DNA of 64,000 bases from Candidatus Omnitrophota bacterium (GCA_016867115.1 VGKG01000001.1:29237-93236), one strand, 5' to 3'; shown: positions 1,653 to 38,405, counted from the stretch's first letter. Numbers and translations are program-made. Notes: generated by a model not told the origin, from the letters alone.

Positions 1653-2571
1653 CAGATAGGGCTTCCTTACTAAAGACAACTTTGAATTCTTCCGGAATTT
1701 CGCTTGAGAACTCCATAAATATTCCGGTTGCCGGATGCGTGAAACCGAGGTATGTCGCATGCAGCGCAAGGCGCGTGAATGAGGCCTCCTTTCCGTATTT
1801 TTCATCGCCCAGTATCGGATGCCCGAGAAACGCAAGATGCACCCTTAACTGATGCGTCCTTCCGGTATAGGGCTCAAGCTCAAGGAGGCTGAAAGCGTCC
1901 CCGCGGCGGATGGTACGGTAATGCGTCTTTGCGTATTTTGTCCCTGCGCCGAAACCGGCGGCCATATTTTTGCGCTTTAGCGGATGCCTGCCGATAGGGA
2001 CCTCAATGACGCCTTCATCGAACTCGACTCTTCCTTTTACCAGGGCGACATATTTACGCCTGATCGAATGCTTTGCAAACTGGCGCGCGAGGGCAAGATG
2101 CGATTGATTATCCTTGGCGATCACCAGAAGGCCGCTGGTATCTTTATCCAGCCGATGCACGATGCCGGGCCGCTCGGGATTTATGTCGGAGAGTTTCTTA
2201 AAACGGTGCAATAACGCGTTCACCAGCGTATGGGAAGGATTTCCTGGGGCAGGATGAACCACAAGCCCGCACCCCTTATCGATCACCGCCAGGTGCCCGT
2301 CTTCATAGACAACATCCAGGGGGATGTCTTCTGCCAGGAGCCCGGAGGGAGCGCTTGGCTCGACGCTAAAAGCCACCTCATCTCCCAGTTTTAATTTATG
2401 GTGGCAAGTGGCGACCGCTTTTCCTGAAAGGCGCACCTTTCCTTGGCGGATAAGCTGCTGGATGCGGCTGCGCGACAGGCCTAGGTTATCCCGGCGGGAG
2501 ACCTCAACAAGCAGCAAGTCCAGGCGCTTGCCTGCGCCCTGCTCATCGACCTTGAATACGAACTCCTTCAT
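1615..2571 (-). CDS. rluD: 23S rRNA pseudouridine synthase, RluA/RluD family
   Basis: 318 aa with an N-terminal S4-like region, the catalytic HRLDKDTSGLLV motif and RluA-family core. The last ~22 codons overlap repeat element copy 1. Confidence 0.85.
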   Translation of the reverse strand: MKEFVFKVDEQGAGKRLDLLLVEVSRRDNLGLSRSRIQQLIRQGKVRLSGKAVATCHHKLKLGDEVAFSVEPSAPSGLLAEDIPLDVVYEDGHLAVIDKGCGLVVHPAPGNPSHTLVNALLHRFKKLSDINPERPGIVHRLDKDTSGLLVIAKDNQSHLALARQFAKHSIRRKYVALVKGRVEFDEGVIEVPIGRHPLKRKNMAAGFGAGTKYAKTHYRTIRRGDAFSLLELEPYTGRTHQLRVHLAFLGHPILGDEKYGKEASFTRLALHATYLGFTHPATGIFMEFSSEIPEEFKVVFSKEALSASRKRSKISDIS

Positions 2572-2576
2572 TTTAA

Positions 2577-3272
2577 TTACCTTTTCTTTCTTAAATGCAG
2601 GTATAAAGGCAGGGCGGTGAAAAAGAGCGCAAGGCTTAAGAAATGAAAGAGCGTCAGGCCATCCAGGATCCTGGGATTATCCTGACGCAAGAACTCTACG
2701 ATGAACCTCTTCACGGAATAAAGTATCAGGTAGGCGTAAAAGACCTCTCCTGCCCGGTGCGGCTTCTCCTGCAGGGACCTTAAACCGGCGTAGATCGCCA
2801 CCAGCGCCAGCGAAGAATAAAGTTGTACCGGGATCAGGGACGACTCATCCCCGAAGCAGCAACCGTTCAGCAGGCAACCGACCCTGCCGATGCCCTGGGC
2901 CAGGGCGACAAAGGGCGAAATCAGGTCGAGGATCCTGTAGACGGGAAGCCTCTTGTACTTGATATAAAAAATACTGAAGCCGACGCCGGAAATGAGCCCG
3001 CCGAACCAGGATAGCCCGCCGCGCTGAAACATCACTATCTCAGGCAGATCGGCCAGATAATGCGGCAGGTTCTCCGCAACGTAAAAGAGCCGCGCGCCGA
3101 TGACGCCGGAGACAAAGGCCCCGAAGGTGAGGTTCAGGATCACATCGGGGCTGACCCGCTCCTTTTTAGCCTGGAGGCAGGCCAGGAACGTAGCCACCAA
3201 AAAAGCAATGACCAGCATCAGGCCGTAGCTGTAGACGGTAAACGGTCCGATCCGGCAGATCTCAGGATACAT
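2577..3272 (-). CDS. lgt: Prolipoprotein diacylglyceryl transferase
   Basis: 231-aa polytopic membrane protein with an Lgt-like N-terminus (IGPFTVYSYGLMLVIAFL) and an Lgt signature region GIGRVGCLLNGCCFG. Confidence 0.85.
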   Translation of the reverse strand: MYPEICRIGPFTVYSYGLMLVIAFLVATFLACLQAKKERVSPDVILNLTFGAFVSGVIGARLFYVAENLPHYLADLPEIVMFQRGGLSWFGGLISGVGFSIFYIKYKRLPVYRILDLISPFVALAQGIGRVGCLLNGCCFGDESSLIPVQLYSSLALVAIYAGLRSLQEKPHRAGEVFYAYLILYSVKRFIVEFLRQDNPRILDGLTLFHFLSLALFFTALPLYLHLRKKR

Positions 3273-3288
3273 ATTCGTAAATCATAAA

Positions 3289-3408
3289 TTTCAAGCTATA
3301 AATTAAAAACTTCAAATGAATGTCAAATTGTACAATTTCAAATTAAAAACTTTAATTTGACATTTGTCATTTGGAATTCATTTGGCATTTGAAACTTGAC
3401 ATTTGAAA
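3289..3408. promoter_or_regulatory. AT-rich regulatory island upstream of lgt, with a sigma70-like promoter on the minus strand, a perfect 14-bp palindrome and reiterated CAAATG/TTGACATTTG motifs.
   Basis: Minus strand reads TTGACAttcatttgaagtttttaaTTTATAgc about 20 nt before the lgt ATG. Palindrome AAATTGTACAATTT at 3325..3338. Direct repeats TTGACATTTG(T/A)(C/A)ATT and CAAATG x5. Roughly 80% AT in a ~55% GC context. Confidence 0.5.
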
Positions 3409-3843
3409 TTAACTAACCTTTTTTGTTTTCAAGATAGACAGAGCCAGCAATACGGCGCCGATAGTGATGGCGCTGTCTGCGACATTAAAAACCGGCCAGA
3501 TCCGGAAATCAAGGAAATCGACTACATAACCGAGGGTCAGCCGGTCAATAAGATTTCCCAGCGCCCCTGCCAGGATCAGGCTTAAAGCCGTACAGTAAAG
3601 CAGCGAACCTTTTTTCTCCTTAAGGCTGAACGCGATCAGGATCACGGCAAAGAGGCTGGTGACGATAAACAGGGGCAGCTGATTCTTCAGTATCCCGAAG
3701 GCAGCTCCCCGGTTATGGACCAGGGTAAGATGAAAAATATTCTTTACGACAGGGATCGAATCGTTCAGCGACAGATTCCTTTGCGCGATAAACTTAGTAA
3801 GGCAGTCTAAGGAAAGGACACAAAAAACGATGATGAAGATCAT
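3409..3843 (-). CDS. lspA: Lipoprotein signal peptidase (signal peptidase II)
   Basis: 144 aa with four TM helices and the LspA motifs VHNRGAAFG and FNVADSAI. Confidence 0.88.
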   Translation of the reverse strand: MIFIIVFCVLSLDCLTKFIAQRNLSLNDSIPVVKNIFHLTLVHNRGAAFGILKNQLPLFIVTSLFAVILIAFSLKEKKGSLLYCTALSLILAGALGNLIDRLTLGYVVDFLDFRIWPVFNVADSAITIGAVLLALSILKTKKVS

Positions 3844-3861
3844 CGGGAGGGGTTTTAAAGG

Positions 3862-4245
3862 TTAACGCTTCTCCCTCTTCTCCTGGCACTTGACGCAAAG
3901 GCGCGCGTGAGGGATTGCCTTGAGCCTGTTCTTGGCGATCAGATTCTTGCAGTCTTCGCAGATGCCGAATGTCCCCTCTTCTATCTTTTTGAGGACGTCG
4001 TCGAGCTCATAAAGGAGCTTGCGTTCGTTGGAGGCGAGCCCCAAGGAAAACTCGCGGTCATAGGTGTCCGTGGCCACATCCGCCATGTGGTAGGTATATC
4101 CGGAGATGTCGCCGGCGGCGTCTTTTTGGGATTTTTTCAGGGTGTCTTCGGAGGAATGCTTTATGCTGTCCAGGACCTCTTCCCTGCGCTTCAAGACGAT
4201 CTTTTTAAACTCCTGCAGCTCTTTTTTAGTGTATTTCTTCTTCAA
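3862..4245 (-). CDS. DksA/TraR-family C4 zinc-finger protein
   Basis: 127 aa. N-terminal coiled-coil region and a C-terminal CxxC...CxxC finger (CEDCKNLIAKNRLKAIPHARLCVKC), typical of DksA/TraR. Confidence 0.75.
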   Translation of the reverse strand: MKKKYTKKELQEFKKIVLKRREEVLDSIKHSSEDTLKKSQKDAAGDISGYTYHMADVATDTYDREFSLGLASNERKLLYELDDVLKKIEEGTFGICEDCKNLIAKNRLKAIPHARLCVKCQEKREKR

Positions 4246-4246
4246 C

Positions 4247-7030
4247 TTATTTCTCCTCTCTGATTGCCTGAAGACACTTTTCGCAGATCAGGGGATGCCC
4301 GACGGATTTTCCGACTTGGTCGCTGTAGTTCCAGCAGCGCACGCACTTTGCGCCGCAGGCTTTAAGCGCAACTATCTCTTTATCGAAGCTGGCCCTTTTC
4401 TCCACATTTACCTGTGAAACCTTAAAGATCTCGCAGAGTTCTGGTTTTAAGCTTTCTAAATATTTATAACGAATTTCATCTTTTGTCAACAGATTTATTT
4501 GGGCGTCAAAGGAGCTTCCGATTTCGCCCTTGCCGCGCAGGGCCTCAAGCTCTGCGGCGACAAGAGGCACCAGCTCTAAGACAGGCTTTAACTCGGATTC
4601 GATGTCTTTCCCGGAAGCGGCAAAATCATCCTGGGCAAAGACCGGATTGTGCCTTGGCCAGTCAGCCAGATGCACGTGTTTTAGCGCAACCTCAGCTCCT
4701 TCTTTAGGCATGTTCTGCCAGATCTCTTCTGCGCTGAATACCAGGATCGGAGCCATGATCCTGGCCAGGACGCTGAGGATCTCATAAATTACCGTTTGTG
4801 CCGCCCGCCTGGCAGTCGAATCCGGGGCATAAGTATAGAGCCTGCCCTTGACCATATCCAGATAATACATGGAGAGGTCTTCGTTGCAAAAATCATAGAT
4901 ACCCTTATAGGCCTTATAGAACTCAAAATCTCCGTAAGCCCGGCTGACCGAATCAAGCATCCGCATGAGCCTGAGCAATATCCAACTGTCGATCTTCGAC
5001 ATCTTTTCGTAAGGCACTTTATTTGCCCCGGGCTCAAAGTCATAGAGGTTGCTCAGGATAAACCGGCAGGTATTACGGATCTTGCGGTAAGCCTCGGCCA
5101 ATCGCGAGAGGATCTCGGGAGAGATCCGGATATCCTCGTTGTAGTCGCTTGACGCAGCCCAGAGCCTTAAGATGTCTGCGCCGTAATCTTTGATGATGTC
5201 GAAAGGCGAGATGACATTGCCCAGCGACTTAGACATCTTCCTGCCTTCGCCGTCCACCACGAATCCGTGCGTCAAGACCGCCTTAAAAGGCGGCTTCTGG
5301 TCGATGCACATCGCCGGAATCAGCGAAGACTGGAACCATCCCCGGTGCTGGTCAGAGCCTTCTAAGTACAGGGCGCAGGGAAACTCCAGCTCTTTTCTTT
5401 TTTTCAAGACTGCCTGGGCGCTCACTCCGGAATCAAACCAGACATCCAGGATATCCGTGCCCTTGGAAAACTCTCTTGCCCCGCATTGCGGGCAACTAAA
5501 ATCCGCGGGAAGGAAATCCTTCAGGTCATGCGTAAACCAGCTGTCAGAGCCTTCGGTTTCCACGAAACGGATGAAATTATCGATCACCGCGGGCGAAAGA
5601 GACTCTTCCCCGCACTTGGTGCAGCTGACCGCAGGAATAGGCACTCCCCAGTATCTCTGCCGGGAGAGGCACCAGTCCGGCCTCAGTTCTACCATAGCCG
5701 AGATCCTCTCCTTGCCTGATGCAGGTATCCACTCTACCTCCTTATCTATGGCTGCAAGCAGCTTCTTCCTCAGGTCCTTATGCTCCAGATTCAGGAACCA
5801 CTGCTTTGTCGCCCGGAAGATTATCGGCGTCTTGCAGCGCCAGCAATGCGGATAGGAGTGCCGGATACCGGAATTAAAGAGCAGGGCTCCAAGCGCAGTA
5901 AGATTCTCAAGGATAGCTTTATTCGCGTCGTAAATATTCATGCCCTTGAACTCCCCTGCGCTTGAGTCAAAGTTCCCCTTTGCGTCCACCGGCATCACGA
6001 CCTCCAGTTTATATTTCAGGCCGGTGAGGTAATCTTCGTTTCCGTGGCCGGGAGCGGTATGCACCAGGCCGGTCCCTTCGTCTTTAGAGACGTAATCAGC
6101 CAGGACCACCCTCCCCTTTCTCAGGCCGAACGGATGTTCGTAAGTCAGCCCTTCAAGGTCTTTTCCGCGAATCTCCTTGAGGACTTCGGAACTCTCGATA
6201 CCGGTATCTGCCAGGACTTTACCTGAAAGCTCCTTTGAGATAATCAGGTTTCCTTTTGCCGTCTTTACGTAAATATAGGTAAGACCGGGGTGGACTGCAA
6301 CCGCGACATTACCGATCAGGGTCCAGGGCGTGGTAGTCCAGATCAATAAAAACGCATCCTTACCGAAAGGCCCTGATTCCTGGAGTTTAAACTTTACGTA
6401 GATCGAAGGAGAAGTGCGCTCTTCATATTCCACTTCCGCCTCGGCAAGCGCAGTCTCGCATTTGTAGCACCAGTTCACCGGCTTAAGCCCGCGGTAGATG
6501 TATCCCTGCTTTACCAGTTCGCAGAAGGCGGCCAGTATCCCCTCTTCATAATCGGGCGTAAGCGTCAGATACGGATTCTCCCAGTCTCCGAAGACCCCCA
6601 GGCGCTTGAACTGCTCCCGCTGGGTATTCACGAAGCGCATGGCGTAATCAAAGGCTTTTTTGCGGAAATCCACCTGCCTGATCTGATATTTATTGATGCC
6701 CAGCTCCTTAAAGAGCTGATGCTCTACCGGCAATCCGTGGCAGTCCCATCCCGGGACATAGGCCGAGTCATGGCCCTGCATGGTCTTGAATTTCACGATG
6801 ATATCCTTAAGCGTCTTATTCAGGGCATGCCCTATATGGATATCGCCGTTAGCATAAGGCGGGCCGTCATGAAGGATGTATTTGGGCCTGCCTTTTGATT
6901 TTTCCGAAATAAGCCGGTAAATGCCCTTCTCCTGCCACTCCTTTAAAAGAAGGGGCTCGCGCCTGGGCAGGTCCGCCTTCATGGGAAATGAAGTCTTTGG
7001 CAGATTAAGGGTAGGTTTGTAGTCTGTCAT
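4247..7030 (-). CDS. ileS: Isoleucyl-tRNA synthetase
   Basis: HIGH motif ([15 protein letters not shown]), KMSKS motif (KMSKSLGNV), CP1 editing region and a C-terminal Zn-binding CxxC pair. The track ORF starts at 7108; [11 protein letters not shown] at 7030 is the more likely start and removes the overlap with mtnP. Confidence 0.9.
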
Positions 7031-7031
7031 C

Positions 7032-7892
7032 TTAACTAATGTATTTTCCGATGATGAGCTTAAGCCTTCTCTTGACCTTATCCGGGATGAATCTCCTGTC
7101 GGTGACAATAGCGTATTTCAGGGCGTCCTGACAGGCGCAGGTCCGCTCCTCAGGGATGTCCCGGATCATGCGGGTCAGTATGTTTTTTGCGTTATCGATG
7201 TTCCTGGTCAGGTTCTGGATCACCATCTCAATGGTCACGGAGGCATGGTGCGGATGCCAGCAGTCATAATCCGTCACCGCAGCCAGCGTCGAATAACAGA
7301 TCTCGGCCTCCCTCGCCAGTTTTGCCTCGGCGAAATTGGTCATGCCGATCACATCCATGCCCCAGGAACGGTAGAGATGCGATTCGGCTAAAGTAGAAAA
7401 GGCCGGGCCCTCCATATTTATATAGGTCCCCCGCTCATGGATCCTAAGGTTCAGGTCCTTTCCTGACTTGTATAACAGTCCCCTTAGTTCTTCGCAAACA
7501 GGATGGGCGAATCCGATGTGCGCCACGATACCCTCTTCAAAGAAGCTGGTATCTCTGGCATAATTGGTCCGGTCCACGAACTGGTCCACCGCGACAAAAT
7601 CAAGCGGCCTGAAATCCTCTTTAAGGCTCCCGCAGGCAGTGACCGAAATGATGCGCTCAACGCCCAACTTCTTCATGGCAAAGATATTGGCGCGGTAGTT
7701 GATGTGGCTGGGCGCTATACGGTGGCCCACGTCATGGCGCGGGACAAAGACCACTTCCTTCCCCTCCAGCTCTCCGATCACGAACCTTCCGGAGGGGCGG
7801 CCGAAAGGAGTGTTAAAGCATACTTTCTTTCTCACCTTTATGCCTTCGATCCTGTACAGGCCGCTTCCGCCGATGATCCCGATCCGCCCCAT
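7032..7892 (-). CDS. mtnP: S-methyl-5'-thioadenosine phosphorylase / purine nucleoside phosphorylase family
   Basis: 286 aa. N-terminus [13 protein letters not shown] and PNP/MTAP family core; a CxC...C tail is present as in MTAPs. Confidence 0.8.
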
Positions 7893-7894
7893 AT

Positions 7895-8707
7895 TTAGCC
7901 CCCTCCGGATAATTCCTGCGCCCGCTTGAAAGCCGCTTTTACGGCGTCGGCGACAGAACCGCCTGATTCCAGGACTTTCAGCCCCGCCTCGGTGGTCCCG
8001 CCTTTAGAGGCGACCTTTTTTATTAATTCCGGGCACGTCCAATTCCTGGCTTTCAATAAAGATACCGTTCCTTTCACGGTCTTTTCGGATAATCTTTGCG
8101 CAAGGACTCTGTCAAATCCGATGCCTGCCGCTGCAAGGGTCAATTCTTCAATAAACTTATCCACCCCAGCAGCATCATTAACAGAAGTCTTTACGCAATA
8201 ACAAAAAAATGCAGGCCCGCTCCCCGAAACCGCGGTTACGGCATCCATCATTTTTTCATCAGCAATATCGGCCGATAAACCGATGAACCTCAATAATTGC
8301 CTTGTAATATCAAGGTCTGATTCATTAGCCGACTTGCCCTTATATAGCCCCGAGAAACCTTCTCCGATCACCGCCGGAAGATTAGGCATGGCCCGCACGA
8401 CTCGCGAGCAGTTTAATATGTTCTCGATATAAGACGCCTTGGTCCCCGCGGCGATTGAGATGATGAGCTTATCTTTTACGCCCGGCTTAATCTCCTCTAA
8501 GAGCATTTCCATGTCCTGCGGCTTTACCGCCAGGATCACGGCATCTGCCATCCCCGCTAATTCAGCCGCGCTGCCCGCAAGTTCAAGATTTGAAAGATCG
8601 CCGGTCTTTGAGGCGTCTTTATCAAAGACAAGGACCCTGTAATCTTTTTTGATCCTTTCGGCTATTGCCGAACCCATATTCCCGAATCCTATAATGCCGA
8701 TCGTCAT
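7895..8707 (-). CDS. proC: Pyrroline-5-carboxylate reductase
   Basis: 270 aa with a Rossmann N-terminus IGIIGFGNMGSAI and ProC-family C-terminal domain. Confidence 0.85.
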   Translation of the reverse strand: MTIGIIGFGNMGSAIAERIKKDYRVLVFDKDASKTGDLSNLELAGSAAELAGMADAVILAVKPQDMEMLLEEIKPGVKDKLIISIAAGTKASYIENILNCSRVVRAMPNLPAVIGEGFSGLYKGKSANESDLDITRQLLRFIGLSADIADEKMMDAVTAVSGSGPAFFCYCVKTSVNDAAGVDKFIEELTLAAAGIGFDRVLAQRLSEKTVKGTVSLLKARNWTCPELIKKVASKGGTTEAGLKVLESGGSVADAVKAAFKRAQELSGGG

Positions 8708-9373
8708 CTAACCCTCGAATATCGCCCGGCCGAGGCGGATCATATTCGCGCCTTCTTCTATGGCTGTCTTGTAATCGTCAGTCATGCCCATGGATAAAGC
8801 CAGGGACCCGTAACTCGTAACTCGTAACTCGTAAATTTTGTCCCGTAATTCTTTTAGGCGCCGGAAATAAAGCCGCGCCTTTTCAGGATTGTCGACGAGA
8901 GGGGCGATCGTCATCAATCCTTTGATACTGACGTTTTTTAACGCCTTAATGATCAGAAATGCCTCAATCAGGCTCTCCGGCCGAAGGCCAAATTTGCTTT
9001 CTTCGCCTGAGGTATTCACCTGGATCAGGATATCCTGGACCTTATTGATCTTTGCCGCCTGCCTATCGATCTCTTCGGCAAGATGCAGGCTATCCACCGA
9101 ATGGATCAGGTCAAAAATCCTGACTGCGTCTTTGGCTTTATTCGTCTGCAGGTGACCGACCATGTGCCATCTTATCGGTTGTGTGCCGTAAGCAGTATGC
9201 TGTATGCCGCGGTACTTCGTCAGGGCTTCCTGAGCCTTATTCTCGCCGATATCACGGATCCCGGCTGCGATCACCTCCACGATCTGATCAATAGTCCTGC
9301 CCTTAGTGACGCAGACAATAGCCACCGTATCCGGGACTTCCTTACGTAGCTTGCGGATATTCTCGCTGATCAT
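8708..9373 (-). CDS. yggS: YggS/PLPBP-family pyridoxal-phosphate homeostasis protein
   Basis: 221 aa with an alanine-racemase N-terminal-like barrel and HMVGHLQTNK. Contains an in-frame 7-nt x3 tandem repeat at 8809..8829. Confidence 0.85.
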   Translation of the reverse strand: MISENIRKLRKEVPDTVAIVCVTKGRTIDQIVEVIAAGIRDIGENKAQEALTKYRGIQHTAYGTQPIRWHMVGHLQTNKAKDAVRIFDLIHSVDSLHLAEEIDRQAAKINKVQDILIQVNTSGEESKFGLRPESLIEAFLIIKALKNVSIKGLMTIAPLVDNPEKARLYFRRLKELRDKIYELRVTSYGSLALSMGMTDDYKTAIEEGANMIRLGRAIFEG

Positions 9374-9421
9374 ATCTTGGATTAATATTATACACGAGAA
9401 TCATGGCGGGTCAAGCGAAGC

Positions 9422-10150
9422 TCAGGGGAGAGGGCCGGGCGGGGATTCTTCTTTCCTGCCAAAGGGCGAGCCGTCTACGTGAAGCTCTATCGCCCTAAGC
9501 GAAAGCCTCCAGCAGAAAACAAGAAGACAGAGCATAAAAAGGATCCCCAGACCCGTATGAGAGAAGATAAAGAAGTCGAAGAGCCCGTGCAGCACGACGG
9601 CAAGGCCGACACCGGTGATGATATGCGTGCTTCTTGCGTCCTCATCGGAAGCGAACTTTGCCAGGCCCAGGTAATAACCCATGATCGCGCCGAAAAATGC
9701 GTGCGCCGGGACGCTGAGCATGGCGCGCATGACTCCCGTTGCCGTCGCAGCCAGGATCCCCAGGTTCAGATAGGCTCCCAGGACATACCCGATATTCTCA
9801 AAGGCCGCCAGGCCCAGGGAGACCATCACCGCATATACTATGCCGTCATAGGGCTCATCAAACTCGTCGTTGAAAAAGATGAGGAAATAAAAGACCAGGA
9901 ACTTGAAGAGCTCTTCTATCAGCCCGGCGACAAAAAAAGATTCCAGGAAGATCTTAAGTAGGTGCGACTCCACGGGGCGGATAAGGAAAGACATGATCAT
10001 TTCGGCGATCAATACGCTGATGCTGCCGAAAAACCCCCAGAGGAAGGCCTTGATCAGAAGCTGAAGCGGTTCTTTTTCGTATTTATCCTTATGATAGAAA
10101 TAGACTGCTAAGGCGATCGCAGGCGAGAGGGCAAGCAGTAAAAGATTCAT
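9422..10150 (-). CDS. PrsW-family intramembrane metalloprotease (putative), sitting where ftsZ is normally found after ftsA
   Basis: 242-aa polytopic membrane protein carrying the PrsW motifs: KYEKEPLQLL near the N-terminus, GLIEELFKF (EExxK), AFENIGY, HAFFGAIMGYY and LHGLFDFF. Confidence 0.6.
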   Translation of the reverse strand: MNLLLLALSPAIALAVYFYHKDKYEKEPLQLLIKAFLWGFFGSISVLIAEMIMSFLIRPVESHLLKIFLESFFVAGLIEELFKFLVFYFLIFFNDEFDEPYDGIVYAVMVSLGLAAFENIGYVLGAYLNLGILAATATGVMRAMLSVPAHAFFGAIMGYYLGLAKFASDEDARSTHIITGVGLAVVLHGLFDFFIFSHTGLGILFMLCLLVFCWRLSLRAIELHVDGSPFGRKEESPPGPLP

Positions 10151-10155
10151 CTCAG

Positions 10156-11418
10156 TTAAAAATATTCGTGGTAAACTTCCCTGACTCTCTGGATGGCTTT
10201 TTTCAGGGGATTCCCGCCGGCCTTGTGGATGTCTGAAACAAGGGAATCCTTATCCTCGATAGCCCTTAAGGCCATGCCAAGGCTTGTCAGATACGTCAGG
10301 TATTTTGAGCCGGAGAGCTCCGGGAGCCTGTTTTCTAACGCTACGGGCAGCGCGCTTGAGTCGCTGATGCGGCCAAGCCTGACCGGGATGTTCAGCGTAT
10401 TCTCAAGCAGCTCAATGAACCCTTCAAGAAGCACGCCGCGGCCGACGACCACAAAGTTATTCACTTCGTAAGTCGAGGCCTTCTTTTCAAGGGCTTCTTT
10501 TATCTGGAAAGAGATCTGTTTGGCTCCGGAAGTGAGTATTTCGCAGACGTCTTTCTGCCGGATCGGCCTGTAAAGATACTCCTTCTTTACCAGTATCTCC
10601 TTATCCTCTTTTATCTTCTGCGCTTCTCCGATTATGCCGTAGGAGCGCTTGATGTCTTCGGCGAGTTCCGCAGGGATCTTCAGGACTTCAGCTAACTGCA
10701 GGGTGAGATTAGCCGATCCCGCCGCAAGGATCTGGACATCCTTAAGTATGCCGTCCCTGAAAATGAGCATCTCCGTGATGTCACTCCCGATATCGCAGAA
10801 TATATTCAGGCCTGTCTTTAATTCTTTATCGAGGGCCGCCTTTGCTCCGGCCATCCCCGAGAGAGAAAGGCTCTTTATCTCGAAACCCGCCTGGGCGAAC
10901 GCGCGGCTGATGCTCTGGACCTGGGATAGTTTTGCCAGGACCAGATAGAGATCCACTTCCAGCCTGTGGCTGTAGAGGCCGACCGGATTAGAGATGTTGG
11001 ATTTGGAATCAATGGTGTAGCCGGAAGGAATCATATGAATGATCTCTTCTTCCAGGCTTGAGGCAAGGATGCGCGCCTGTTCGTTGACGCGCTGGACATC
11101 GAGCCCGGTGATCACTTTGTTGCCGCGCTCAGCCAGCGGAACGATCGCGCGGCTGTGCCTGGTGACGATCTCCTGGCCCGAGACATTGACATGGACGACT
11201 TTGATATTTACCCCGGATTTGGCCTTAAGGATCTTCACCAGCCGGTCTATAGCACTTACCAGCTCTATGGAATCGACTACCGCTCCCGCCTTTATGCCCT
11301 TTGCCAGCACCGAATCCAGAAAAAGCTCTTCGATGCGCTTCTTCCTGTATTTAGCCAGGCAGCCGGCGATCTTGCTTGTGCCGATATCGAGTGTACAGAC
11401 GTAGTTATCGTTTATCAT
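10156..11418 (-). CDS. ftsA: Cell division protein FtsA
   Basis: 420 aa, actin-like ATPase (LDIGTSKI at the N-terminus) with FtsA domain architecture; immediately downstream of ftsQ. Confidence 0.9.
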   Translation of the reverse strand: MINDNYVCTLDIGTSKIAGCLAKYRKKRIEELFLDSVLAKGIKAGAVVDSIELVSAIDRLVKILKAKSGVNIKVVHVNVSGQEIVTRHSRAIVPLAERGNKVITGLDVQRVNEQARILASSLEEEIIHMIPSGYTIDSKSNISNPVGLYSHRLEVDLYLVLAKLSQVQSISRAFAQAGFEIKSLSLSGMAGAKAALDKELKTGLNIFCDIGSDITEMLIFRDGILKDVQILAAGSANLTLQLAEVLKIPAELAEDIKRSYGIIGEAQKIKEDKEILVKKEYLYRPIRQKDVCEILTSGAKQISFQIKEALEKKASTYEVNNFVVVGRGVLLEGFIELLENTLNIPVRLGRISDSSALPVALENRLPELSGSKYLTYLTSLGMALRAIEDKDSLVSDIHKAGGNPLKKAIQRVREVYHEYF

Positions 11419-12187
11419 CCCTGTTCTTTATTGTAGGGTCTTTAAAGCGCAGGTCAATATATTTTATGTTCTCCAGTTCCTGCTTATAGGCGATAAAAAG
11501 GCCGCCCAGAAAAACCACCCTCTCCTTGAGGTTCTGTCCGCTTAATTTCACCTCCAGGTCATCCGGAGCAAAGCCTGCGGAGGGAGGCTGGCCCTGAACC
11601 GGGATGGAGATGAATAACGCTATGCTCTCCGGATTATCCACGTCAATCTTCCTTATCCGGTACTCTTTAAAGACATTGTTCCTGCGCATCTCCCTGATCA
11701 GGCTTAAGGCAAGCAGCAGTTCGCGGTTCGTATATTTTGCCCCGGGCACGGGCGAAGAGATCTTTCTTTCAAGCCCGGTGATCACCGGCAGCGTCCCGTC
11801 CTGAGGCAGGAGCGCGCTGTTAAAAAGGACGGCGTTTGCATCCACTGCCAGATACCGGTTAAGCCTCACCAGCGCAAGGGGTATGCGCCTGATGAAATCC
11901 ACGAAGACCTTATCCGGCAGGAGCCTGATGAACCTGACTTCACTGCAGTCAGGCTTCTGCCGCAGGAAATAACGCGCCTCTCTTTTTAGGTCGACGCCGA
12001 AGATATTCCTTCCCTTAAGATAGCTAAGGTCCACTCCCGGCTCTTTGGTAAAGACCTCCCTGATCTTAAAATATTGGGCGTGCGTAAAAAATCTTAAGGC
12101 AAACCACGTGCCTGCCGACAGGGCCAGCAGCGCTATGACTAAAAGTACGGCTATTTTAACCGGAAACTCCGGCTTTCTTTTTTTCAT
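11405..12187 (-). CDS. ftsQ: Cell division protein FtsQ/DivIB
   Basis: 260 aa with an N-terminal TM helix and POTRA-like region; sits between ddl and ftsA. Confidence 0.8.
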   Translation of the reverse strand: MKKRKPEFPVKIAVLLVIALLALSAGTWFALRFFTHAQYFKIREVFTKEPGVDLSYLKGRNIFGVDLKREARYFLRQKPDCSEVRFIRLLPDKVFVDFIRRIPLALVRLNRYLAVDANAVLFNSALLPQDGTLPVITGLERKISSPVPGAKYTNRELLLALSLIREMRRNNVFKEYRIRKIDVDNPESIALFISIPVQGQPPSAGFAPDDLEVKLSGQNLKERVVFLGGLFIAYKQELENIKYIDLRFKDPTIKNRDDKR

Positions 12188-13136
12188 ATGCGATGGCTAA
12201 AAGGCGCAGGCAAAGCCCGCCGAAATCTATTCCCGTGACCTTGGCCGCCTTCGGCAGGAGGCTGGTGGAAGTCATCCCGGGGATAGTGTTAATCTCCAAG
12301 ATATAGGGGACGGAATCGCCGCTTAAGATTATGTCTACGCGCGAACAGCCGAAACAACCAAGCAGCTTATGCGCATGAAGCGCTGCCTCCTGTGCTCTTT
12401 CCGCGTCCTTGTCGCTTAGCTTCGCCGGGACGACATATTCGGTCATCCCTGCCTGGTACTTGGCCTGAAAATCAAAGAACCCGGTCTTAGGGATAATCTC
12501 GATCACCGGAAGGGCCTTTTCTTCAAGGATCCCCACGGTCAGCTCTCTTCCGGAGATATACTCCTGGACAACAGCGCGCCCGTCATAAATAAAGGCCTCA
12601 TCCAGGGCCTGAGGCAGGTCCTCTCTTTTTTCGACGATAGAGAGCCCGATACTTGAGCCATGAGTGGCCGGCTTGATCACTAAAGGCAGTCTCAGGCCGC
12701 TGTTAAATCCCGGCCGCTTATTTTTTTCCACCACTTCAAAGCGGGGAACATCAAGCCCTGCGCGGCGAAAAATCTCTAAAGAAGCGATCTTATCCATGGC
12801 CAATCTGCTTGCCTTGACCCCCGAACCGGTATAAGGAAGGCCCAGCGACTCAAGTATCTCCTGGATCGCGCCGTCTTCGCCGAAACGGCCGTGCAGGGCC
12901 AGGAATGCGCAGTTGATCCCGTGATCCCTTAGCAACCTCTTATTTGATTCGGGGTCTTCGCTTTTAATATCGATACCCGTGACATCCAGCCCCAGGCCCT
13001 TCAGCGCCTCCTCTACCGCATGCCCGCTCTTAAGAGAGATCTCCCGCTCCGAAGAAGGCCCGCCCATCAAGACGCCGATCCTGCCAAAATCGGTTCTTTG
13101 GTTCTTTGGTTCTTTGGTTATTCGGTTTATTTCCAT
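12156..13136 (-). CDS. ddl: D-alanine--D-alanine ligase
   Basis: 326 aa with GVLMGGPSSEREISLKSG and an ATP-grasp core. A short N-terminal extension is encoded by an 8-nt tandem repeat. Confidence 0.88.
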   Translation of the reverse strand: MEINRITKEPKNQRTDFGRIGVLMGGPSSEREISLKSGHAVEEALKGLGLDVTGIDIKSEDPESNKRLLRDHGINCAFLALHGRFGEDGAIQEILESLGLPYTGSGVKASRLAMDKIASLEIFRRAGLDVPRFEVVEKNKRPGFNSGLRLPLVIKPATHGSSIGLSIVEKREDLPQALDEAFIYDGRAVVQEYISGRELTVGILEEKALPVIEIIPKTGFFDFQAKYQAGMTEYVVPAKLSDKDAERAQEAALHAHKLLGCFGCSRVDIILSGDSVPYILEINTIPGMTSTSLLPKAAKVTGIDFGGLCLRLLAIAYEKKKAGVSG

Positions 13137-14008
13137 ATTTTTATTTCCGGCTCCAGAACGATACCGAACTTATTCTTTACCTGTCTTCTGACTGAATTCA
13201 TCAGTTTAACTACGTCGCAGGAACTGGCGTTTCCGCAATTCAAAATAAAATTAGCATGCCTCCTGGATACCTGCGCCCGACCTATCCTCCTGCCTTTGAG
13301 ACCGCATAAATCGATCAGTCTCCCGGCGGAGCTATCTTCGGGGTTCTTGAAAATACAGCCGGCGTTGGGCAGAGCCGCATCCTGGGTACTGCGGCGCTTT
13401 CTCAGGTAATCCTGTTCGTCCTTTCTGATCACTGCTCTATCTTTCCTGGTGAGGCCAAGGGTCGCGCCGAGGATGACGTAATCGCTTAAACCCGAACTGC
13501 GGTAGCCGTAACGGATACCCTTTTTATTCAAATTTTTTATCCTGCCATTATAATCCATAACCTCGCAACTTTCCACTAAATCCATTATGCTCTTTCCGAA
13601 GCATCCGGCATTCATGGCTAAGGCTCCGCCCAGCGAACCCGGGATCCCGGATAAGAACTCAAGCCCGGATAAACCAAGAGCCCCGGCTTTGCGGATCAGC
13701 CGGCTAAGCATGATGCCGCTGCCTGCCTCTAAATCCGTTCCCGAAGGGCAGGACCTGTTAAAAAAAGGGGAGTCCAGCTTGATCACCAGGGCCTTCAGCC
13801 CTTTATCACTGACCAGGATATTACTTCCCGCTCCCAGGACATAGACCGGCAGCCGGTGCTTCTTTGCCGCCCTCACCAGTAAAGACAATTCTACGGCGTC
13901 TTTTGGGCAGGCAAACCACCTGGCCCTGCCGCCGATGCGAAAAGTCGTCTTTGACCTTAAGGGCGCGTTTGACTCAACCCTGACTTTTAAGCCTTTCTGC
14001 CAGTTCAT
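13127..14008 (-). CDS. murB: UDP-N-acetylenolpyruvoylglucosamine reductase
   Basis: 293 aa with an FAD-binding domain (RIGGRA...LGAGSN) and MurB C-terminal domain. Confidence 0.88.
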   Translation of the reverse strand: MNWQKGLKVRVESNAPLRSKTTFRIGGRARWFACPKDAVELSLLVRAAKKHRLPVYVLGAGSNILVSDKGLKALVIKLDSPFFNRSCPSGTDLEAGSGIMLSRLIRKAGALGLSGLEFLSGIPGSLGGALAMNAGCFGKSIMDLVESCEVMDYNGRIKNLNKKGIRYGYRSSGLSDYVILGATLGLTRKDRAVIRKDEQDYLRKRRSTQDAALPNAGCIFKNPEDSSAGRLIDLCGLKGRRIGRAQVSRRHANFILNCGNASSCDVVKLMNSVRRQVKNKFGIVLEPEIKIWK

Positions 14009-15350
14009 CGCTTACCTTGACAATATCGCCTGCTCCCAGAGTGATGACCAGGTCTTCATTCTTTAAGATATTAAGGATGTGGCCGGAGATCTCTTCCTTA
14101 GCCAGATACACCACCTCTTTGGCGGGATCAAACGCTTTGATCTTATCCGCAAGGGCCCTTGCGTGTACACCTTTGATCGCCGGCTCGCTTGCCGCGTAGA
14201 TATCCGTGATCACCACGTAATCCGCCAGCCCGAAACTGCGGCTGAAATCATCCATCAAAAGGTGCGTGCGGGTAAAACGGTGGGGCTGGAATACCGCAAT
14301 CATACGGCCGCGCCCCAGCCTCCTGGCTGCATTCAGGGTAGCCTTTATCTCCGTGGGATGATGCGCGTAATCGTCGATCAGAAGCAGGCCGTTATTTTTG
14401 AACTTTACTTCAAGGCGCCTGCCTGCCCCCCGGTATTCGGCAAGCGCCGCCTTGATCGCCTCAAGGTCTATCCCCAGTTCAAGGCCGACGCCCACAACAG
14501 CCAGCGCATTAGAAATATTGTGCTCTCCCGCGAGCGCAAGCCTGAATCTGGCGATGAACTTATTCCTGAGGAAACAATCGAACTCGGAACTCAAGCCTTC
14601 TATCTTTATATTATCCGGATAGATGTCCGAGCCGTGTTTTAATCCGAAAAGCAGGTATCTGTCCTTGTAGTCTGCGAGGATCTTCCTTACATTCGCATCG
14701 TCACCGCAGCCGAAGACTACGCCCCCCTCCTGCGTGCGCTCCAGGAACTTCCGGAAGGCGGCGACCTCCGAGTCAAAATCTTTATAATAATCCAGGTGCT
14801 CCCGGTCGATATTGGTGATACAGGAGTATTTCGGGCGGTAATAGAGGAACGATCCGTCGGACTCATCCGCCTCGGCGACAAAGAACGCACCGTTACCCAT
14901 GCAGGCGTTAGTGTCTATATTCTTCAGTATCCCGCCGACGGCGACAGTAGGATTGAGCCCCGCCCTTATCAGCATATAAGAGATCAGGGAGGTGGTGGTC
15001 GTCTTTCCGTGGCTGCCGGTGACCGTGATCACTGACTTCTCCTGCATCAGCTGCGCCAGCGCCTCCGCCCTCTTGATCAGGGGCAAGTTAAGTTTCCTGG
15101 CCCGGATGATCTCGGGATTATCCTCTTTGATCGCGGAGGAATAGATCACCAGGTTTGCATCCCCGATGTTTTCCTGGCGGTGGCCAAGGTATATGTCCGC
15201 GCCGAGAGCCTTGAGCTCTCCGGTGACCCTCGTCTCCTTTATGTCCGAGCCGCTCACCTTCACCCCGCAGGCAAGGAGGAGCCGCGCAATCCCGCTCATG
15301 CCGATACCGCCGATGCCGATCAGAAAATAATGTTTTTTCATGTCTATCAA
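13974..15350 (-). CDS. murC: UDP-N-acetylmuramate--L-alanine ligase
   Basis: 458 aa, Mur ligase with P-loop GSHGKTTTT; position in the dcw cluster. Confidence 0.9.
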   Translation of the reverse strand: MIDMKKHYFLIGIGGIGMSGIARLLLACGVKVSGSDIKETRVTGELKALGADIYLGHRQENIGDANLVIYSSAIKEDNPEIIRARKLNLPLIKRAEALAQLMQEKSVITVTGSHGKTTTTSLISYMLIRAGLNPTVAVGGILKNIDTNACMGNGAFFVAEADESDGSFLYYRPKYSCITNIDREHLDYYKDFDSEVAAFRKFLERTQEGGVVFGCGDDANVRKILADYKDRYLLFGLKHGSDIYPDNIKIEGLSSEFDCFLRNKFIARFRLALAGEHNISNALAVVGVGLELGIDLEAIKAALAEYRGAGRRLEVKFKNNGLLLIDDYAHHPTEIKATLNAARRLGRGRMIAVFQPHRFTRTHLLMDDFSRSFGLADYVVITDIYAASEPAIKGVHARALADKIKAFDPAKEVVYLAKEEISGHILNILKNEDLVITLGAGDIVKVSDELAERLKSQG

Positions 15351-16459
15351 TACCGGGCCAGCGCGATAGCCGCATTGGCTAACCTGACGCCGGAGTCTTC
15401 TATCTTCATGCCGCGATAACCTGAACGCATACTGCTAAGCGCCTGCCGGTCATCCAGAAAACCTTTCAGTTTCTCGGCAAGTATCTCCTTATCGAGGTCT
15501 GCGTCATTGATTATGCAGGCGCACCCCTTCTTCTCAAGGATGCGGGCGTTGTTCAACTGATGCTGATAGGCGTAAGGGTAGGGAATGAGGATAGCGGGGA
15601 GCGCAAATTGCATGATCTCGGTGACGGTGATCGCCCCCGAACGCGATAGGACCAGGTCGCTTGCGCTGTAGGCGTAATGCACGGGCTTAAGGAAATCGAA
15701 TACCTTGGCCGAAATGTTCAGGCCGCGGTAACTTTCCCTTACTTTCAGATAATCCTCTCTTCCGCTTAGATGGATGATCTGGAACCTGTCTTTTTGCGGG
15801 ATAGATGAGACCGCCGCAAGCAGGCCCTGATTGATGCTGCGGCTCCCCTGGCTTCCGCCCATGACCAGAAGCGTGAACTTATCCGGTTCAAGGCCGAGGA
15901 AACTAAGGGCCTCATTTTTTTCCACTCTTTTTAATTCCCGGCGGACGGGATTTCCCGTAAAAATGAGTTTATCGGGATCGATCCTTATGAAATCGCGCGT
16001 CTGGTCAAAAGAAATCGCCACCCGGTCGGCAAAGCGCATGAGCAGCCGGTTAGCCCTTCCCGGATGGACATTCTGTTCATGGATCATGGTCCTGATGCGA
16101 AAGAGCCAGGCAAAGACCAATAGCGGCACGCTGTTAATGCCGCCAAACCCCACGACCAGGTCGGGCCGGAATCCGGCCAGGAGCAGGAAGCTCATTAATG
16201 TCCCCTTAAAAAATTTAAAAAGCGCGCCGATATTCTTCCGGTTGAGCTTCGGTTTTATCGAGCATATCGGCAGATACTCTACGCGGTAGGCCTCAAGGTT
16301 TATTTTATCCTTAAGGCAGCTTGCCGGAAGGACAAGGAGCGCATCCAGGTCCTTCTCTTTTTCCCTGAGGGCCTCCAGAAAGCTCAGGGCCGGAAAGATG
16401 TGGCCTCCGCTTTCGCCGGTTGCGACGATGATCTTCAATGGCCTGTGCCTGGCGGTCAT
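15347..16459 (-). CDS. murG: UDP-GlcNAc:undecaprenyl-PP-MurNAc-pentapeptide GlcNAc transferase
   Basis: 370 aa, GT28 family, with N-terminus IVATGESGGHIFPAL. Confidence 0.9.
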   Translation of the reverse strand: MTARHRPLKIIVATGESGGHIFPALSFLEALREKEKDLDALLVLPASCLKDKINLEAYRVEYLPICSIKPKLNRKNIGALFKFFKGTLMSFLLLAGFRPDLVVGFGGINSVPLLVFAWLFRIRTMIHEQNVHPGRANRLLMRFADRVAISFDQTRDFIRIDPDKLIFTGNPVRRELKRVEKNEALSFLGLEPDKFTLLVMGGSQGSRSINQGLLAAVSSIPQKDRFQIIHLSGREDYLKVRESYRGLNISAKVFDFLKPVHYAYSASDLVLSRSGAITVTEIMQFALPAILIPYPYAYQHQLNNARILEKKGCACIINDADLDKEILAEKLKGFLDDRQALSSMRSGYRGMKIEDSGVRLANAAIALARY

Positions 16460-16460
16460 T

Positions 16461-17555
16461 CTACGGATATTCTCCTGTGCGGGCGATATTGATCAGAAAC
16501 CCCACGCTGATCAGGTCAAAGATAAATGACGAGCCGCCGTAGCTGATAAAGGGCAGCGGCAGGCCCTTTGTCGGGAGCATCCCGCAGGAGACCCCGATAT
16601 TGATCACAGCCTTCAATGCGATCATCAACACAAGGCCCAGAGCCAGAAAATAACTGAACTTGTCCGGCGCGTTCTTGATGATCTTTAATCCCTGCAGGAT
16701 GAAGACGATAAAAAGGATGACTACGGCGGTCGTACCGATCAGGCCCAGCTCCTCTCCGATGATGGAGAAGATGAAATCGGTGTGCCCCGCAGGAAGATAA
16801 AACAGCTTCTGCCGTGAATGGCCCAGCCCCACGCCGAAGAGCCCGCCTGAACCCAGGGCGATCTGCGACTGGATGATCTGAAAACCGCTTCCCCGCGGGT
16901 CAGCCCAGGGATTCAAGAAAGCCAGGATCCGCGCCCGGCGGTAAGGTACGCGGAAGATCAACAGGTACAGCGCAGGCAGGCTCCCCAAGACCACAGAGCC
17001 CAGATACGCCGTCCTTGTGCCGGCTACAAAGAGCATGATGAAAACTACGCTGCCGATAGCTATCGTCGTGCCCAGGTCCGGCTGCATCAGGATCAGGAGG
17101 CAGGTGCATCCGAGGACCGCTACCGGAGGGAGGAACCCTTTGAGAAAATCCCTCATCCGCTCGCCCCTGCGGCTGATAAAATCCGCGACATAGACGATCA
17201 CCGCAAGGTTAGCCAGCTCCGACGGCTGGAAACTGATGAACTTGAAACGGAACCATCGCCGCGCGCCGGAGACCTCCCTTCCTATACCCGGGATCAGGAC
17301 CAATACCAGCAGCAGAAGCGAGACCATAAGCAGGGGCTTGGCATAGCGGCGCAGTTTCTGATAATCGACGGTCATGGCCGCAAACATAAGCAGGATGCCG
17401 ATGGCCAGAAAACTTAAGTGCCGCTTCAGGAAGAACAGGGAATCCTTGTATCTCTCCCAGGCATAGATGCTGGAAGCGCTGTAGATCATCACGATACCGA
17501 TACAGACCAAAATGACAGTGACGGTAAAAATATTTATGCGGGTCTCTCTGATCAT
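16461..17555 (-). CDS. ftsW: Peptidoglycan glycosyltransferase FtsW (SEDS family)
   Basis: 364-aa polytopic SEDS protein lying between murD and murG. Confidence 0.88.
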   Translation of the reverse strand: MIRETRINIFTVTVILVCIGIVMIYSASSIYAWERYKDSLFFLKRHLSFLAIGILLMFAAMTVDYQKLRRYAKPLLMVSLLLLVLVLIPGIGREVSGARRWFRFKFISFQPSELANLAVIVYVADFISRRGERMRDFLKGFLPPVAVLGCTCLLILMQPDLGTTIAIGSVVFIMLFVAGTRTAYLGSVVLGSLPALYLLIFRVPYRRARILAFLNPWADPRGSGFQIIQSQIALGSGGLFGVGLGHSRQKLFYLPAGHTDFIFSIIGEELGLIGTTAVVILFIVFILQGLKIIKNAPDKFSYFLALGLVLMIALKAVINIGVSCGMLPTKGLPLPFISYGGSSFIFDLISVGFLINIARTGEYP

Positions 17556-18826
17556 CTCTTGCTCACGGAATCAGCCAACGCCAGGACCGCCTGCCTAAAA
17601 GCCTCTCCCCTCTCTTCGTAATCAGAGAACATATCGAAACTTGAACACATCGGCGAAAGCAGGACCGTATCTCCGGGAGAAGCCAGGGAATATGCCCTTG
17701 AAACTGCCGCCTGCATATCTTCGGCGTCTTCTAACGGCAGGGCGCCTGAGAGGGCACGGCGGATCTTGTCTTTGGCCTCTCCGATCAGGACCGCGTACTT
17801 CACCTTTTTTCCGGCGGCCCCCAGGATCATGCTGTAGTCTACGCCCTTATCCCTACCCCCTGCGATCAGGACTACGCCGGAGGGGATATTCTTGATCGCC
17901 CAGGCCGTGGATTCGGCGACCGTGGCCTTGGAATCATTGACGAACTTGACATCGTTCAATGTAGCAACGTACTCCATCCTGTGCTTCAACCCTTTGAAAT
18001 CAGCGAAGACTTTCCGGCAGATTCCGCTATCTATCCCGATGATACCCGCCACGCTGGCCACCGCTGCCTGGTTGGGATTAAAAGATGCATTCTCACTGAA
18101 ATAGACGACTTTTGATCTTGCCTGGCGCGATAGCCCTTTCAAGGCAGGATCGCGTTCATTCAGGACCAGATAATCCGCAGCATCCTGATTCATAAAGATG
18201 CGCATCTTTGCCTCGAGGTATTCCTGCATATCCTTGTGCCGGTCAAGGTGATTGCGGTTAAAATTGAGCATCAGTGCGATCTTCGGCTTAAAAGCGGCGA
18301 TGCGTTCAAGCTGGAAGGAACTTGCCTCAAGCACCGCGTAATCGCCTGTTTGCATCTTCGGGACTTCCTGGGCAAAAGGCGTACCGATATTACCGCAGAC
18401 ATATGCTCTCCTGCCGCCTGTCTTAAGCACCTCGCCGATCAGGGTAGTCACGGTAGTCTTTCCGGTAGAACCCGTCACCGCGATCACCTCTGCCGGGCAG
18501 AGCATCCAGGCAAACTCTATCTCGCTGATCACCGGTATCGACTCTTCTTCTGCCCGGGCGATCACCGGGCTGTTGTTCGCAACACCCGGAGATACAATCA
18601 AAAGGTCTGCCCCGCGGATAAAATCCCGGGTGTGCCCGCCGACCTCGCTGGCAATGCTTTTTGACTTAAGGCGGGCGATGTTTCTGCGGATTGCCTCATT
18701 ATCCTGATTATCGCTGATGCGCACCCTCGCGCCAAGATCAAATAACAGGTTTGCGCAGGCAAGTCCTGAGCGCGCAAGACCTACTACCGTAACTGACTTA
18801 TCCTTGAAATATCCCGGATTTCTCAT
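17552..18826 (-). CDS. murD: UDP-N-acetylmuramoylalanine--D-glutamate ligase
   Basis: 424 aa, Mur ligase (GSTGKTTVT) with an N-terminal Rossmann fold VVGLARSG. Confidence 0.9.
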   Translation of the reverse strand: MRNPGYFKDKSVTVVGLARSGLACANLLFDLGARVRISDNQDNEAIRRNIARLKSKSIASEVGGHTRDFIRGADLLIVSPGVANNSPVIARAEEESIPVISEIEFAWMLCPAEVIAVTGSTGKTTVTTLIGEVLKTGGRRAYVCGNIGTPFAQEVPKMQTGDYAVLEASSFQLERIAAFKPKIALMLNFNRNHLDRHKDMQEYLEAKMRIFMNQDAADYLVLNERDPALKGLSRQARSKVVYFSENASFNPNQAAVASVAGIIGIDSGICRKVFADFKGLKHRMEYVATLNDVKFVNDSKATVAESTAWAIKNIPSGVVLIAGGRDKGVDYSMILGAAGKKVKYAVLIGEAKDKIRRALSGALPLEDAEDMQAAVSRAYSLASPGDTVLLSPMCSSFDMFSDYEERGEAFRQAVLALADSVSKR

Positions 18827-19915
18827 CTACCTTATCTTAAGCGTCACTATCGTCATCAGGGCCAGGAGCCCGGCGATGATCCAGAACCTGACGATCACCT
18901 TATTCTCCTTCCAGTCAAGAAACTGAAAATGATGATGCAGGGGGGCGATCTTAAAAAGCCGCTTCTTGAAAAACTTAAAAGTTCCCACCTGCAGGATGAC
19001 TGAAAGGGCCTCCAGCACAAAGATTCCGCCTACTACCATAAGCAGGAGCTCTTTTTTGATCATCAAGGCTACGGTCCCGATTGCACCACCGAGGGCCAGA
19101 GACCCGACATCGCCCATAAACACGGAGGCCGGGTAACAATTAAACCATAGGAATCCGAGGCTGGCTCCGATGATGCTGGAGCAGAATACGGTCAGCTCTG
19201 CGCCTGACTTGATATAAGGAATAAGCAGGTATTCGCTAAAACGCATGTTTCCTGAGACATAAGAAAGTATGGCAAAGGCCACCGCCACCATCACCATGAT
19301 CCCGGCAGCCAGGCCGTCAAGGCCGTCAGTAAGGTTAACTGCGTTGGAAGACCCGGTGATGACCAGCATGACAAACACGATATAGAGGCCGTCAAGATTC
19401 ACGGAGACGTCTTTTAAAAAGGGAAAATCCAGCCTGATGCTGTTCTGCGGCTCAAGGTAGAGGATGGTCCCCAGGATCAGCCCCAGGACGATCTGGCTGG
19501 TCAATTTAGTAGTGGCGGCAAGGCCTTTGGCCTGCTTCTTTACCTGTTTCAGATAATCGTCGATAAACCCCGTGATCCCCAGCCAGAGGATGACGAACAG
19601 GCATACCAGGATATATTTGTTAAGTATATCCGCCCATAAAACAGTGGAAATGATTATCGCAGCCAGGATCAAAACTCCGCCCATAGTCGGTGTGCCTGCC
19701 TTACCGCTATGCAGTTCGTCCAGCCGCAGGCTATCCTGCTTATTGATCTTCTCTCCGATCTTCAATCTCTTTAGCTTCCTGATCACAAAGGGGCCGAAGA
19801 TCAGGCTCAATAAAAAGGCGGTCAGTGCCGCCATTGCCGAGCGGAAGGTGATATAACGGAAGAGGTTAAAAAAGGTGAAGGTATCGTGTAAAGGAAAAAG
19901 CAGGTAATAGAGCAT
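18827..19915 (-). CDS. mraY: Phospho-N-acetylmuramoyl-pentapeptide transferase
   Basis: 362-aa polytopic membrane protein with MraY motifs (NAVNLTDGLDGLA; the HHHFQ/HHH region). Confidence 0.9.
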   Translation of the reverse strand: MLYYLLFPLHDTFTFFNLFRYITFRSAMAALTAFLLSLIFGPFVIRKLKRLKIGEKINKQDSLRLDELHSGKAGTPTMGGVLILAAIIISTVLWADILNKYILVCLFVILWLGITGFIDDYLKQVKKQAKGLAATTKLTSQIVLGLILGTILYLEPQNSIRLDFPFLKDVSVNLDGLYIVFVMLVITGSSNAVNLTDGLDGLAAGIMVMVAVAFAILSYVSGNMRFSEYLLIPYIKSGAELTVFCSSIIGASLGFLWFNCYPASVFMGDVGSLALGGAIGTVALMIKKELLLMVVGGIFVLEALSVILQVGTFKFFKKRLFKIAPLHHHFQFLDWKENKVIVRFWIIAGLLALMTIVTLKIR

Positions 19916-35324: not shown

Positions 35325-35349
35325 AAACCGTCTATACCTAGATATCAAG

Positions 35350-37160: not shown

Positions 37161-37163
37161 ATC

Positions 37164-38404: not shown

Positions 38405-38405
38405 G

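Follow-up and report, generated by a model that had tools for sequence, protein, structure and literature searches.

The 64,000-nucleotide stretch of DNA analysed here (the window; GCA_016867115.1, VGKG01000001.1:29237-93236) comes from a Candidatus Omnitrophota bacterium and carries a division and cell wall (dcw) gene cluster that has no ftsZ. The dcw genes are collinear from mraZ to ftsA on the minus strand (26194-10156), the strand of all genes of interest, and the cluster is complete up to ftsA, but ftsZ is not its terminal gene. Directly after ftsA stands a gene for a membrane protease of the PrsW family (242 amino acids, aa), and this is followed by yggS and proC. Gene identities were assigned with Pfam and NCBIfam/TIGR models at their curated cutoffs (Table 1). 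An earlier note on this DNA had described both parts of the map, the canonical dcw order as far as ftsA and the PrsW, yggS and proC genes behind it. The first was confirmed by family models from mraZ to ftsA (with ftsL placed by position and topology), and the second by the open reading frames (ORFs) and their Pfam/TIGR matches.

A motif search (regular expression) of the six-frame translation of the 64 kb window found no tubulin signature, and tblastn with E. coli FtsZ as the probe gave no match in the window at E ≤ 10. The probe was validated against the PDB, where it matched E. coli FtsZ over the full length (808 bits) and found the FtsZ proteins of Thermotoga, Aquifex and Methanocaldococcus at E ≤ 1e-73. 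Matches to the Pfam families Tubulin and FtsZ_C were likewise absent from the window's ORFs of at least 150 aa (nearly all that are plausibly coding), with unannotated ORFs taken to E ≤ 1. A divergent FtsZ or tubulin-like protein, or some other unrecognised cytoskeletal protein, might have replaced FtsZ and escaped the standard models. Divergent FtsZ-like families exist in bacteria of the Planctomycetes-Verrucomicrobia-Chlamydiae (PVC) superphylum, and several of the window's ORFs match no family. However, even the permissive threshold of E ≤ 1 brought up nothing tubulin-like in the window, and related loci show no conserved unknown gene adjoining ftsA, so that a replacement of this kind is unlikely.

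The sequence is derived from a metagenome-assembled genome (MAG), and in some short assemblies the contig ends near this region, so an assembly or binning artefact could be imagined in which ftsZ was dropped or PrsW was joined to ftsA by misassembly. However, the ftsA-PrsW-yggS junction recurs in independent freshwater assemblies (JGI and Logan) from several different samples, which rules out a one-off misassembly. The reading frames at the junction are tight and intact, and the ftsA-yggS junction is present on 63 independent contigs of relatives. The likelihood of an artefact is negligible.

The relatives comprise 89 Omnitrophota loci (9 from genomes and 80 from metagenomes, the latter retrieved with an FtsA alignment; 854 kb), in which FtsA is 52-64% identical to that of the window. 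FtsZ, sought by tubulin motif, tblastn and Pfam, was found in none of the 89, and the claim of the earlier note that ftsZ is missing from the slot after ftsA is borne out for both the 64 kb and the related loci. PrsW had no match in any of the 89 either, adjoining ftsA in none of them, and so is not conserved at this position. The refuting arrangement named in the earlier note, with ftsZ directly after ftsA and no PrsW, was seen in no relative: PrsW is lacking in every case, but so is ftsZ (0/89). Informative for the gene order are the 76 loci with at least 300 bp of sequence past ftsA. In 63 of these yggS lies directly after ftsA (median gap, 106 bp), in 2 a single unrelated gene is inserted between ftsA and yggS, and in the other 11 a different gene comes next. 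The inserts before yggS encode a 299-aa secreted protein (L014, 5265-6164; the prefix L denotes sequences used for comparison) and a pilin-like protein (L098, 1702-2169), while a convergent polyprenyl synthase gene and genes for a glycosyltransferase and a thioredoxin are among the different next genes. Loci with a sufficiently long flank conserve the block yggS-proC-mtaP-ileS-dksA-like-lspA-lgt-rluD, and its order is the same in L007, L011, L012, L013 and L014. A dcw cluster that ends at ftsA is the state common to a large clade of Omnitrophota, and adjacency of ftsA and yggS is its commonest form. The junction following ftsA is also a hot spot of lineage-specific insertions and rearrangements (L014, L098, L008-L010, L022, L031, L044 and L048).

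The spacer between ftsA and yggS contains a near-consensus promoter (TTGACC-N16/17-TATAAT) in 58 of 63 relatives (for example L007, 11249-11295). The -35 box often begins immediately past the ftsA stop codon (...TTT TAA TTGACC...), and the yggS start is only about 10-25 nt beyond the -10 box. In the window, the conserved promoter is found between PrsW and yggS (9414 to 9387). As it occupies the ftsA-yggS spacer in relatives and follows PrsW in the window, the point at which PrsW was inserted is precisely placed, behind the stop codon of ftsA and ahead of the yggS promoter. Judged by this promoter and by the gene order of the relatives, PrsW is a later, lineage-specific insertion and a minor addition to the operon.

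The nearest homologue of PrsW, with 79% identity, is in L016, where the order PrsW-yggS-proC-mtaP is kept. The first 173 nt of L016 (1-173) are non-coding; a CAGACACTTTAC motif recurs in them, and they also contain an inverted repeat (ACACTTTACG...CGTAAAGTGT). Homologues at 52-56% identity come next (one from GCA_021796115.1), and their neighbourhoods are unrelated: one is between genes for a DegT-type aminotransferase and a radical-SAM protein, and another has rpmB in front of it and a DUF362 gene behind it. Matches at 47-51% identity include proteins named by NCBI as Omnitrophota, and named Bacteroidota appear only at about 40-45%. A horizontal acquisition of PrsW from another phylum was considered and rejected, since the nearest named homologues (47-56%) are from Omnitrophota, ahead of those from Bacteroidota; PrsW is therefore an Omnitrophota-type gene that moved, and not a foreign one. 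The earlier note had placed PrsW in the position of ftsZ. That view is not sustained in either evolutionary or functional terms: the shared state of the relatives is ftsA, the yggS promoter and yggS, with PrsW added later in this lineage only, its homologues are in unrelated contexts, and other lineages carry unrelated inserts at the same junction. There is no evidence for PrsW replacing FtsZ.

The protein itself matches PF13367 (MEROPS M82) with 150.7 bits (cutoff 23.5, E = 4.7e-44). Across 22 aligned PrsW homologues, residues E79, E80 and K83 (EExxK), E118, N119, H150 and H188 do not vary, D192 is nearly invariant, and by hydropathy the catalytic motifs are carried by multiple hydrophobic segments. 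Relative to the 79% homologue, dN/dS (the ratio of nonsynonymous to synonymous substitution rates) is about 0.09, with dS about 1.5. The invariant motifs and the low ratio indicate an intact gene on which purifying selection acts, and the product is probably an active membrane protease. No structure of PrsW was found by sequence search of the PDB. PrsW of B. subtilis is the site-1 protease of the anti-sigma factor RsiW in the sigma-W pathway, so the label 'site-2-like' given previously to the window protein was wrong. The two proteins share PF13367, the EExxK, FEN, H and HxxxD motifs and a multi-pass membrane topology. The window protein differs in scoring 168.9 bits against NF033739, the equivalog model for B. 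subtilis PrsW as RsiW site-1 protease, which is under the cutoff of 225, and in its probable operon with ftsA. It differs also in its surroundings, as no gene for an extracytoplasmic function (ECF) sigma factor or anti-sigma factor (SigW/RsiW-like) was found in the 64 kb or beside the Omnitrophota PrsW homologues.

PrsW could have been recruited to the dcw operon to cleave a membrane protein of the divisome or envelope, as part of, or in compensation for, division without FtsZ. Its start lies 5 nt from ftsA and upstream of the next promoter, the gene is maintained by selection, and a precedent exists in B. subtilis, where FtsL is subject to regulated intramembrane proteolysis by RasP. However, the position is conserved in none of the 89 relatives, the homologues have unrelated neighbours, the secreted and pilin-like inserts of other lineages occur at the same junction, and the loss of ftsZ is far older than the insertion of PrsW. 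A link to division is accordingly highly doubtful, and a division-related substrate for PrsW is possible but unsupported.

The 420-aa actin-like protein encoded before PrsW is FtsA. It exceeds the cutoff of the FtsA equivalog TIGR01174 (198.7 bits versus 175.85), contains the Pfam domains SHS2_FTSA (PF02491; SHS2, 1C) and FtsA (PF14450), and has FtsA structures as its best PDB matches (7q6f, E = 1.5e-25; also those of S. aureus and T. maritima). Mean column identity is 84% across 10 Omnitrophota sequences, with the C-terminal tail included. This conserved tail, KKAIQRVREVYHEYF (...KAxNRVKEVYQEYF), shows hydrophobic periodicity and is predicted to be amphipathic, a candidate membrane-targeting helix. 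Such strong conservation means that FtsA evidently still has an essential role. At residues ~297-302 the window protein reads TSGAKQI and the relatives TSSAKSI, aligned with EPRYTEL of E. coli and Vibrio. The positions aligned with R300 and E303 of E. coli FtsA are G and Q in the window, and S and S in the relatives. These two E. coli residues presumably contact the C-terminal tail of FtsZ, which FtsA binds by its subdomain 2B (T. maritima 4A2A), and if they do, the FtsZ-tail binding site of FtsA may have decayed.

Table 1. Features of the dcw region and its downstream flank in the window, in order of transcription.
Feature	Position	Strand	Evidence or remark
mraZ, opening gene of the dcw cluster	25757..26194	(-)	TIGR00242, 135.9 bits (cutoff 98.35)
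mraW/rsmH	24829..25755	(-)	PF01795, E = 1.6e-104
ftsL-like, 122 aa, single N-terminal transmembrane segment	24464..24832	(-)	Position and ORF/hydropathy (topology) only
ftsI, penicillin-binding protein 3-type transpeptidase	22694..24418	(-)	PF00905 and PF03717
murE, murF, mraY, murD, ftsW, murG, murC, murB, ddl	12156..22716	(-)	Canonical order; NCBIfam equivalog/subfamily models above cutoff, Pfam
ftsQ, divergent	11405..12187	(-)	PF03799, 22.3 bits (cutoff 21; weak)
ftsA, final canonical gene of the cluster, 420 aa	10156..11418	(-)	TIGR01174 and PDB FtsA matches
PrsW-family glutamic-type intramembrane protease, 242 aa	9422..10150	(-)	PF13367; start 5 nt past the ftsA stop
Sigma-70-type promoter before yggS, TTGACC-16-TATAAT	9387..9414	(-)	11/12 consensus match
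yggS/ylmE, pyridoxal phosphate homeostasis protein	8708..9373	(-)	TIGR00044, 187.7 bits (cutoff 106.25)
proC	7895..8707	(-)	TIGR00112, 204.4 bits (cutoff 196.75)
mtaP, ileS, dksA/ylyA-like (DksA-type) zinc-finger gene, lspA, lgt, rluD	1615..7892	(-)	Pfam/NCBIfam; conserved downstream synteny block

For the murE-ddl block, the precomputed Pfam assignments of an identical contig (L001) also support the identities given in Table 1. The 122-aa ftsL-like ORF had no family match in the Pfam and NCBIfam scans, and FtsQ, although divergent, is kept in relatives at 40-46% identity. Just downstream of rluD, a 274-aa ORF (529-1353) has an N-terminal hydrophobic segment followed by a long coiled-coil-like region, and gives weak matches to coiled-coil families only. 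Elsewhere in the window (35349-40624), a flavin mononucleotide (FMN) riboswitch (40438-40624, 79.3 bits) lies ahead of ribBA and is followed by ribBA, ribH, a PHP-domain gene, ribD, ribE and then tRNA-Pro(CGG) (35349-35424). Within 51303-55634 there is a tandem pair of TldD/PmbA-family peptidase genes on the minus strand. Beside the pair is a divergent 466-aa ORF with a weak match to the circularly permuted ATP-grasp family (E = 1.3e-4, below cutoff), and the three genes may form a peptide-modification module.

Among GTDB species genomes, the relatives of the window's FtsA are all Candidatus Omnitrophota MAGs (9/9, 54-60% identity), and the exact PrsW protein of the window is named Candidatus Omnitrophica bacterium in NCBI. 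By these protein matches, the window is assigned to a freshwater member of Candidatus Omnitrophota, within the PVC superphylum. The survey of Seymour 2023 (421 genomes, 276 species) reports in its Supplementary Note 1 that species representatives of Omnitrophota have no ftsZ, with one exception, an FtsZ 89% identical to an archaeal protein and attributed to contamination or recent transfer; ftsY and ribosomal protein L30 are also absent phylum-wide. Pende 2021 (Fig. 4 legend and Supplementary Data) lists Omnitrophica as FtsZ-less together with Planctomycetes and Chlamydiae. In its table, Ca. Omnitrophus magneticus, RIFOXYB12_FULL_50_7 and WOR_2 SM23_29 have FtsA and no FtsZ, GWA2_41_15 has neither, and FtsZ is thus absent in four of four bona fide Omnitrophica. 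That Omnitrophota have lost ftsZ but kept ftsA has therefore been published before, though it is little discussed, and the main texts of two large Omnitrophota genome papers contain no discussion of cell division. The guess in the earlier note of an FtsZ-less lineage of the PVC type was right, given the assignment to Omnitrophota, the 89 related loci and the published phylum-wide absence.

Taken together, we estimate a probability of about 0.88 that ftsZ was lost in the phylum while the dcw cluster otherwise stayed intact and ftsA remained constrained, and that PrsW is a later, lineage-specific insertion. Several points weigh against this reading. In L016, the 173 nt available upstream of PrsW, where the contig ends, do not encode the C-terminus of FtsA; as the 3' end of ftsA is lacking there, the tight ftsA-PrsW junction may be younger than the adjacency of PrsW and yggS. 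Co-transcription of PrsW with ftsA and the other dcw genes is probable, its whole basis being the 5-nt gap and the position of the promoter. Our own data cover 64 kb of the genome, and in some bacteria the dcw cluster is fragmented with ftsZ located elsewhere, so a canonical FtsZ might merely have been relocated by a simple rearrangement. Beyond the 64 kb, the absence of ftsZ is taken from the literature, that is, from published MAG surveys. In a 2025 paper, Omnitrophota are counted among phyla with 'highly conserved' dcw genes and ftsZ is not singled out, which could also be read in favour of relocation. However, the phylum-wide surveys found nothing in species representatives other than the one archaeal-like sequence, all four bona fide proteomes of Pende 2021 lack FtsZ, and none of the 89 related loci has FtsZ within 8-10 kb of ftsA. 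Relocation of ftsZ is therefore very improbable. Finally, FtsZ is ascribed to Omnitrophica in a 2016 review. This statement rests on OLB16, the sole FtsZ-positive 'Omnitrophica' in Pende 2021, which has since been moved out of Omnitrophota to its own phylum, Hinthialibacterota. The reclassification explains the 2016 statement and resolves the contradiction in the PVC literature over FtsZ in Omnitrophica.

Under the preferred reading of ancestral ftsZ loss and later PrsW insertion, the history of the locus would begin with a clean deletion of ftsZ, leaving the collinear mraZ-ftsA genes abutting the old yggS-rluD block. After this loss ftsA would have been retained under strong constraint. Later, and in this lineage, an Omnitrophota-type PrsW gene would have entered the gap from the ftsA stop codon to the conserved yggS promoter, and it would now close the dcw transcription unit and be co-expressed with the cluster. 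Division is likely to be FtsZ-independent, with membrane-bound FtsA acting together with FtsQ, FtsL, FtsW, FtsI and FtsK, and it is possibly aided by MreB/RodZ, as in Chlamydia. In Chlamydia, FtsK and MreB/RodZ are reported to be central to division without FtsZ. In the window, rodZ (HTH_25 and RodZ_C domains) comes immediately after ftsK (46987-43980), and pnp is upstream. A bolder proposal combines an FtsA-centred, FtsZ-independent divisome, which would make Omnitrophota the only known lineage to keep the actin-like membrane anchor without its tubulin partner, with the capture of PrsW into the dcw operon of this lineage for the regulated proteolysis of a bitopic divisome or envelope protein (FtsL or FtsQ, for instance). 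As a whole, we regard this combination as highly improbable.

The neighbourhood of ftsA can be compared with that of Firmicutes such as B. subtilis, in which the gene order is ftsAZ ... ylmE(yggS)-sepF ... divIVA-ileS-ylyA-lspA-rluD. In both, the ftsZ slot is flanked by ftsA on one side and on the other by yggS, ileS, a DksA-like zinc-finger gene, lspA and rluD (window 1615-11418). The window locus differs in having no ftsZ, sepF or divIVA, and proC, mtaP and lgt are interleaved. The shared order suggests that the synteny block is very old and that ftsZ was cut out of it.

The surveys of Seymour 2023 and Pende 2021 treat the phylum to which the window belongs and the trait seen in it, ftsZ absent and ftsA present. 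They record presence and absence, whereas the locus itself, with its clean excision and the PrsW insertion, is not described there; the window provides a locus-level view of what they tabulate, in which ftsZ is cleanly excised, the dcw cluster is otherwise intact and ftsA is under strong constraint. Chlamydiota and Planctomycetota belong to the same superphylum, also lack FtsZ, and likewise retain ftsI, ftsW, ftsQ, ftsK and the mur genes. In these phyla ftsA has been lost as well and the dcw cluster is fragmented, whereas the window keeps a conserved ftsA at the end of a cluster still collinear from mraZ. Omnitrophota are thus a naturally occurring example of FtsA retained in the absence of FtsZ, an intermediate condition unlike that of Chlamydiota and Planctomycetota, which lost both.

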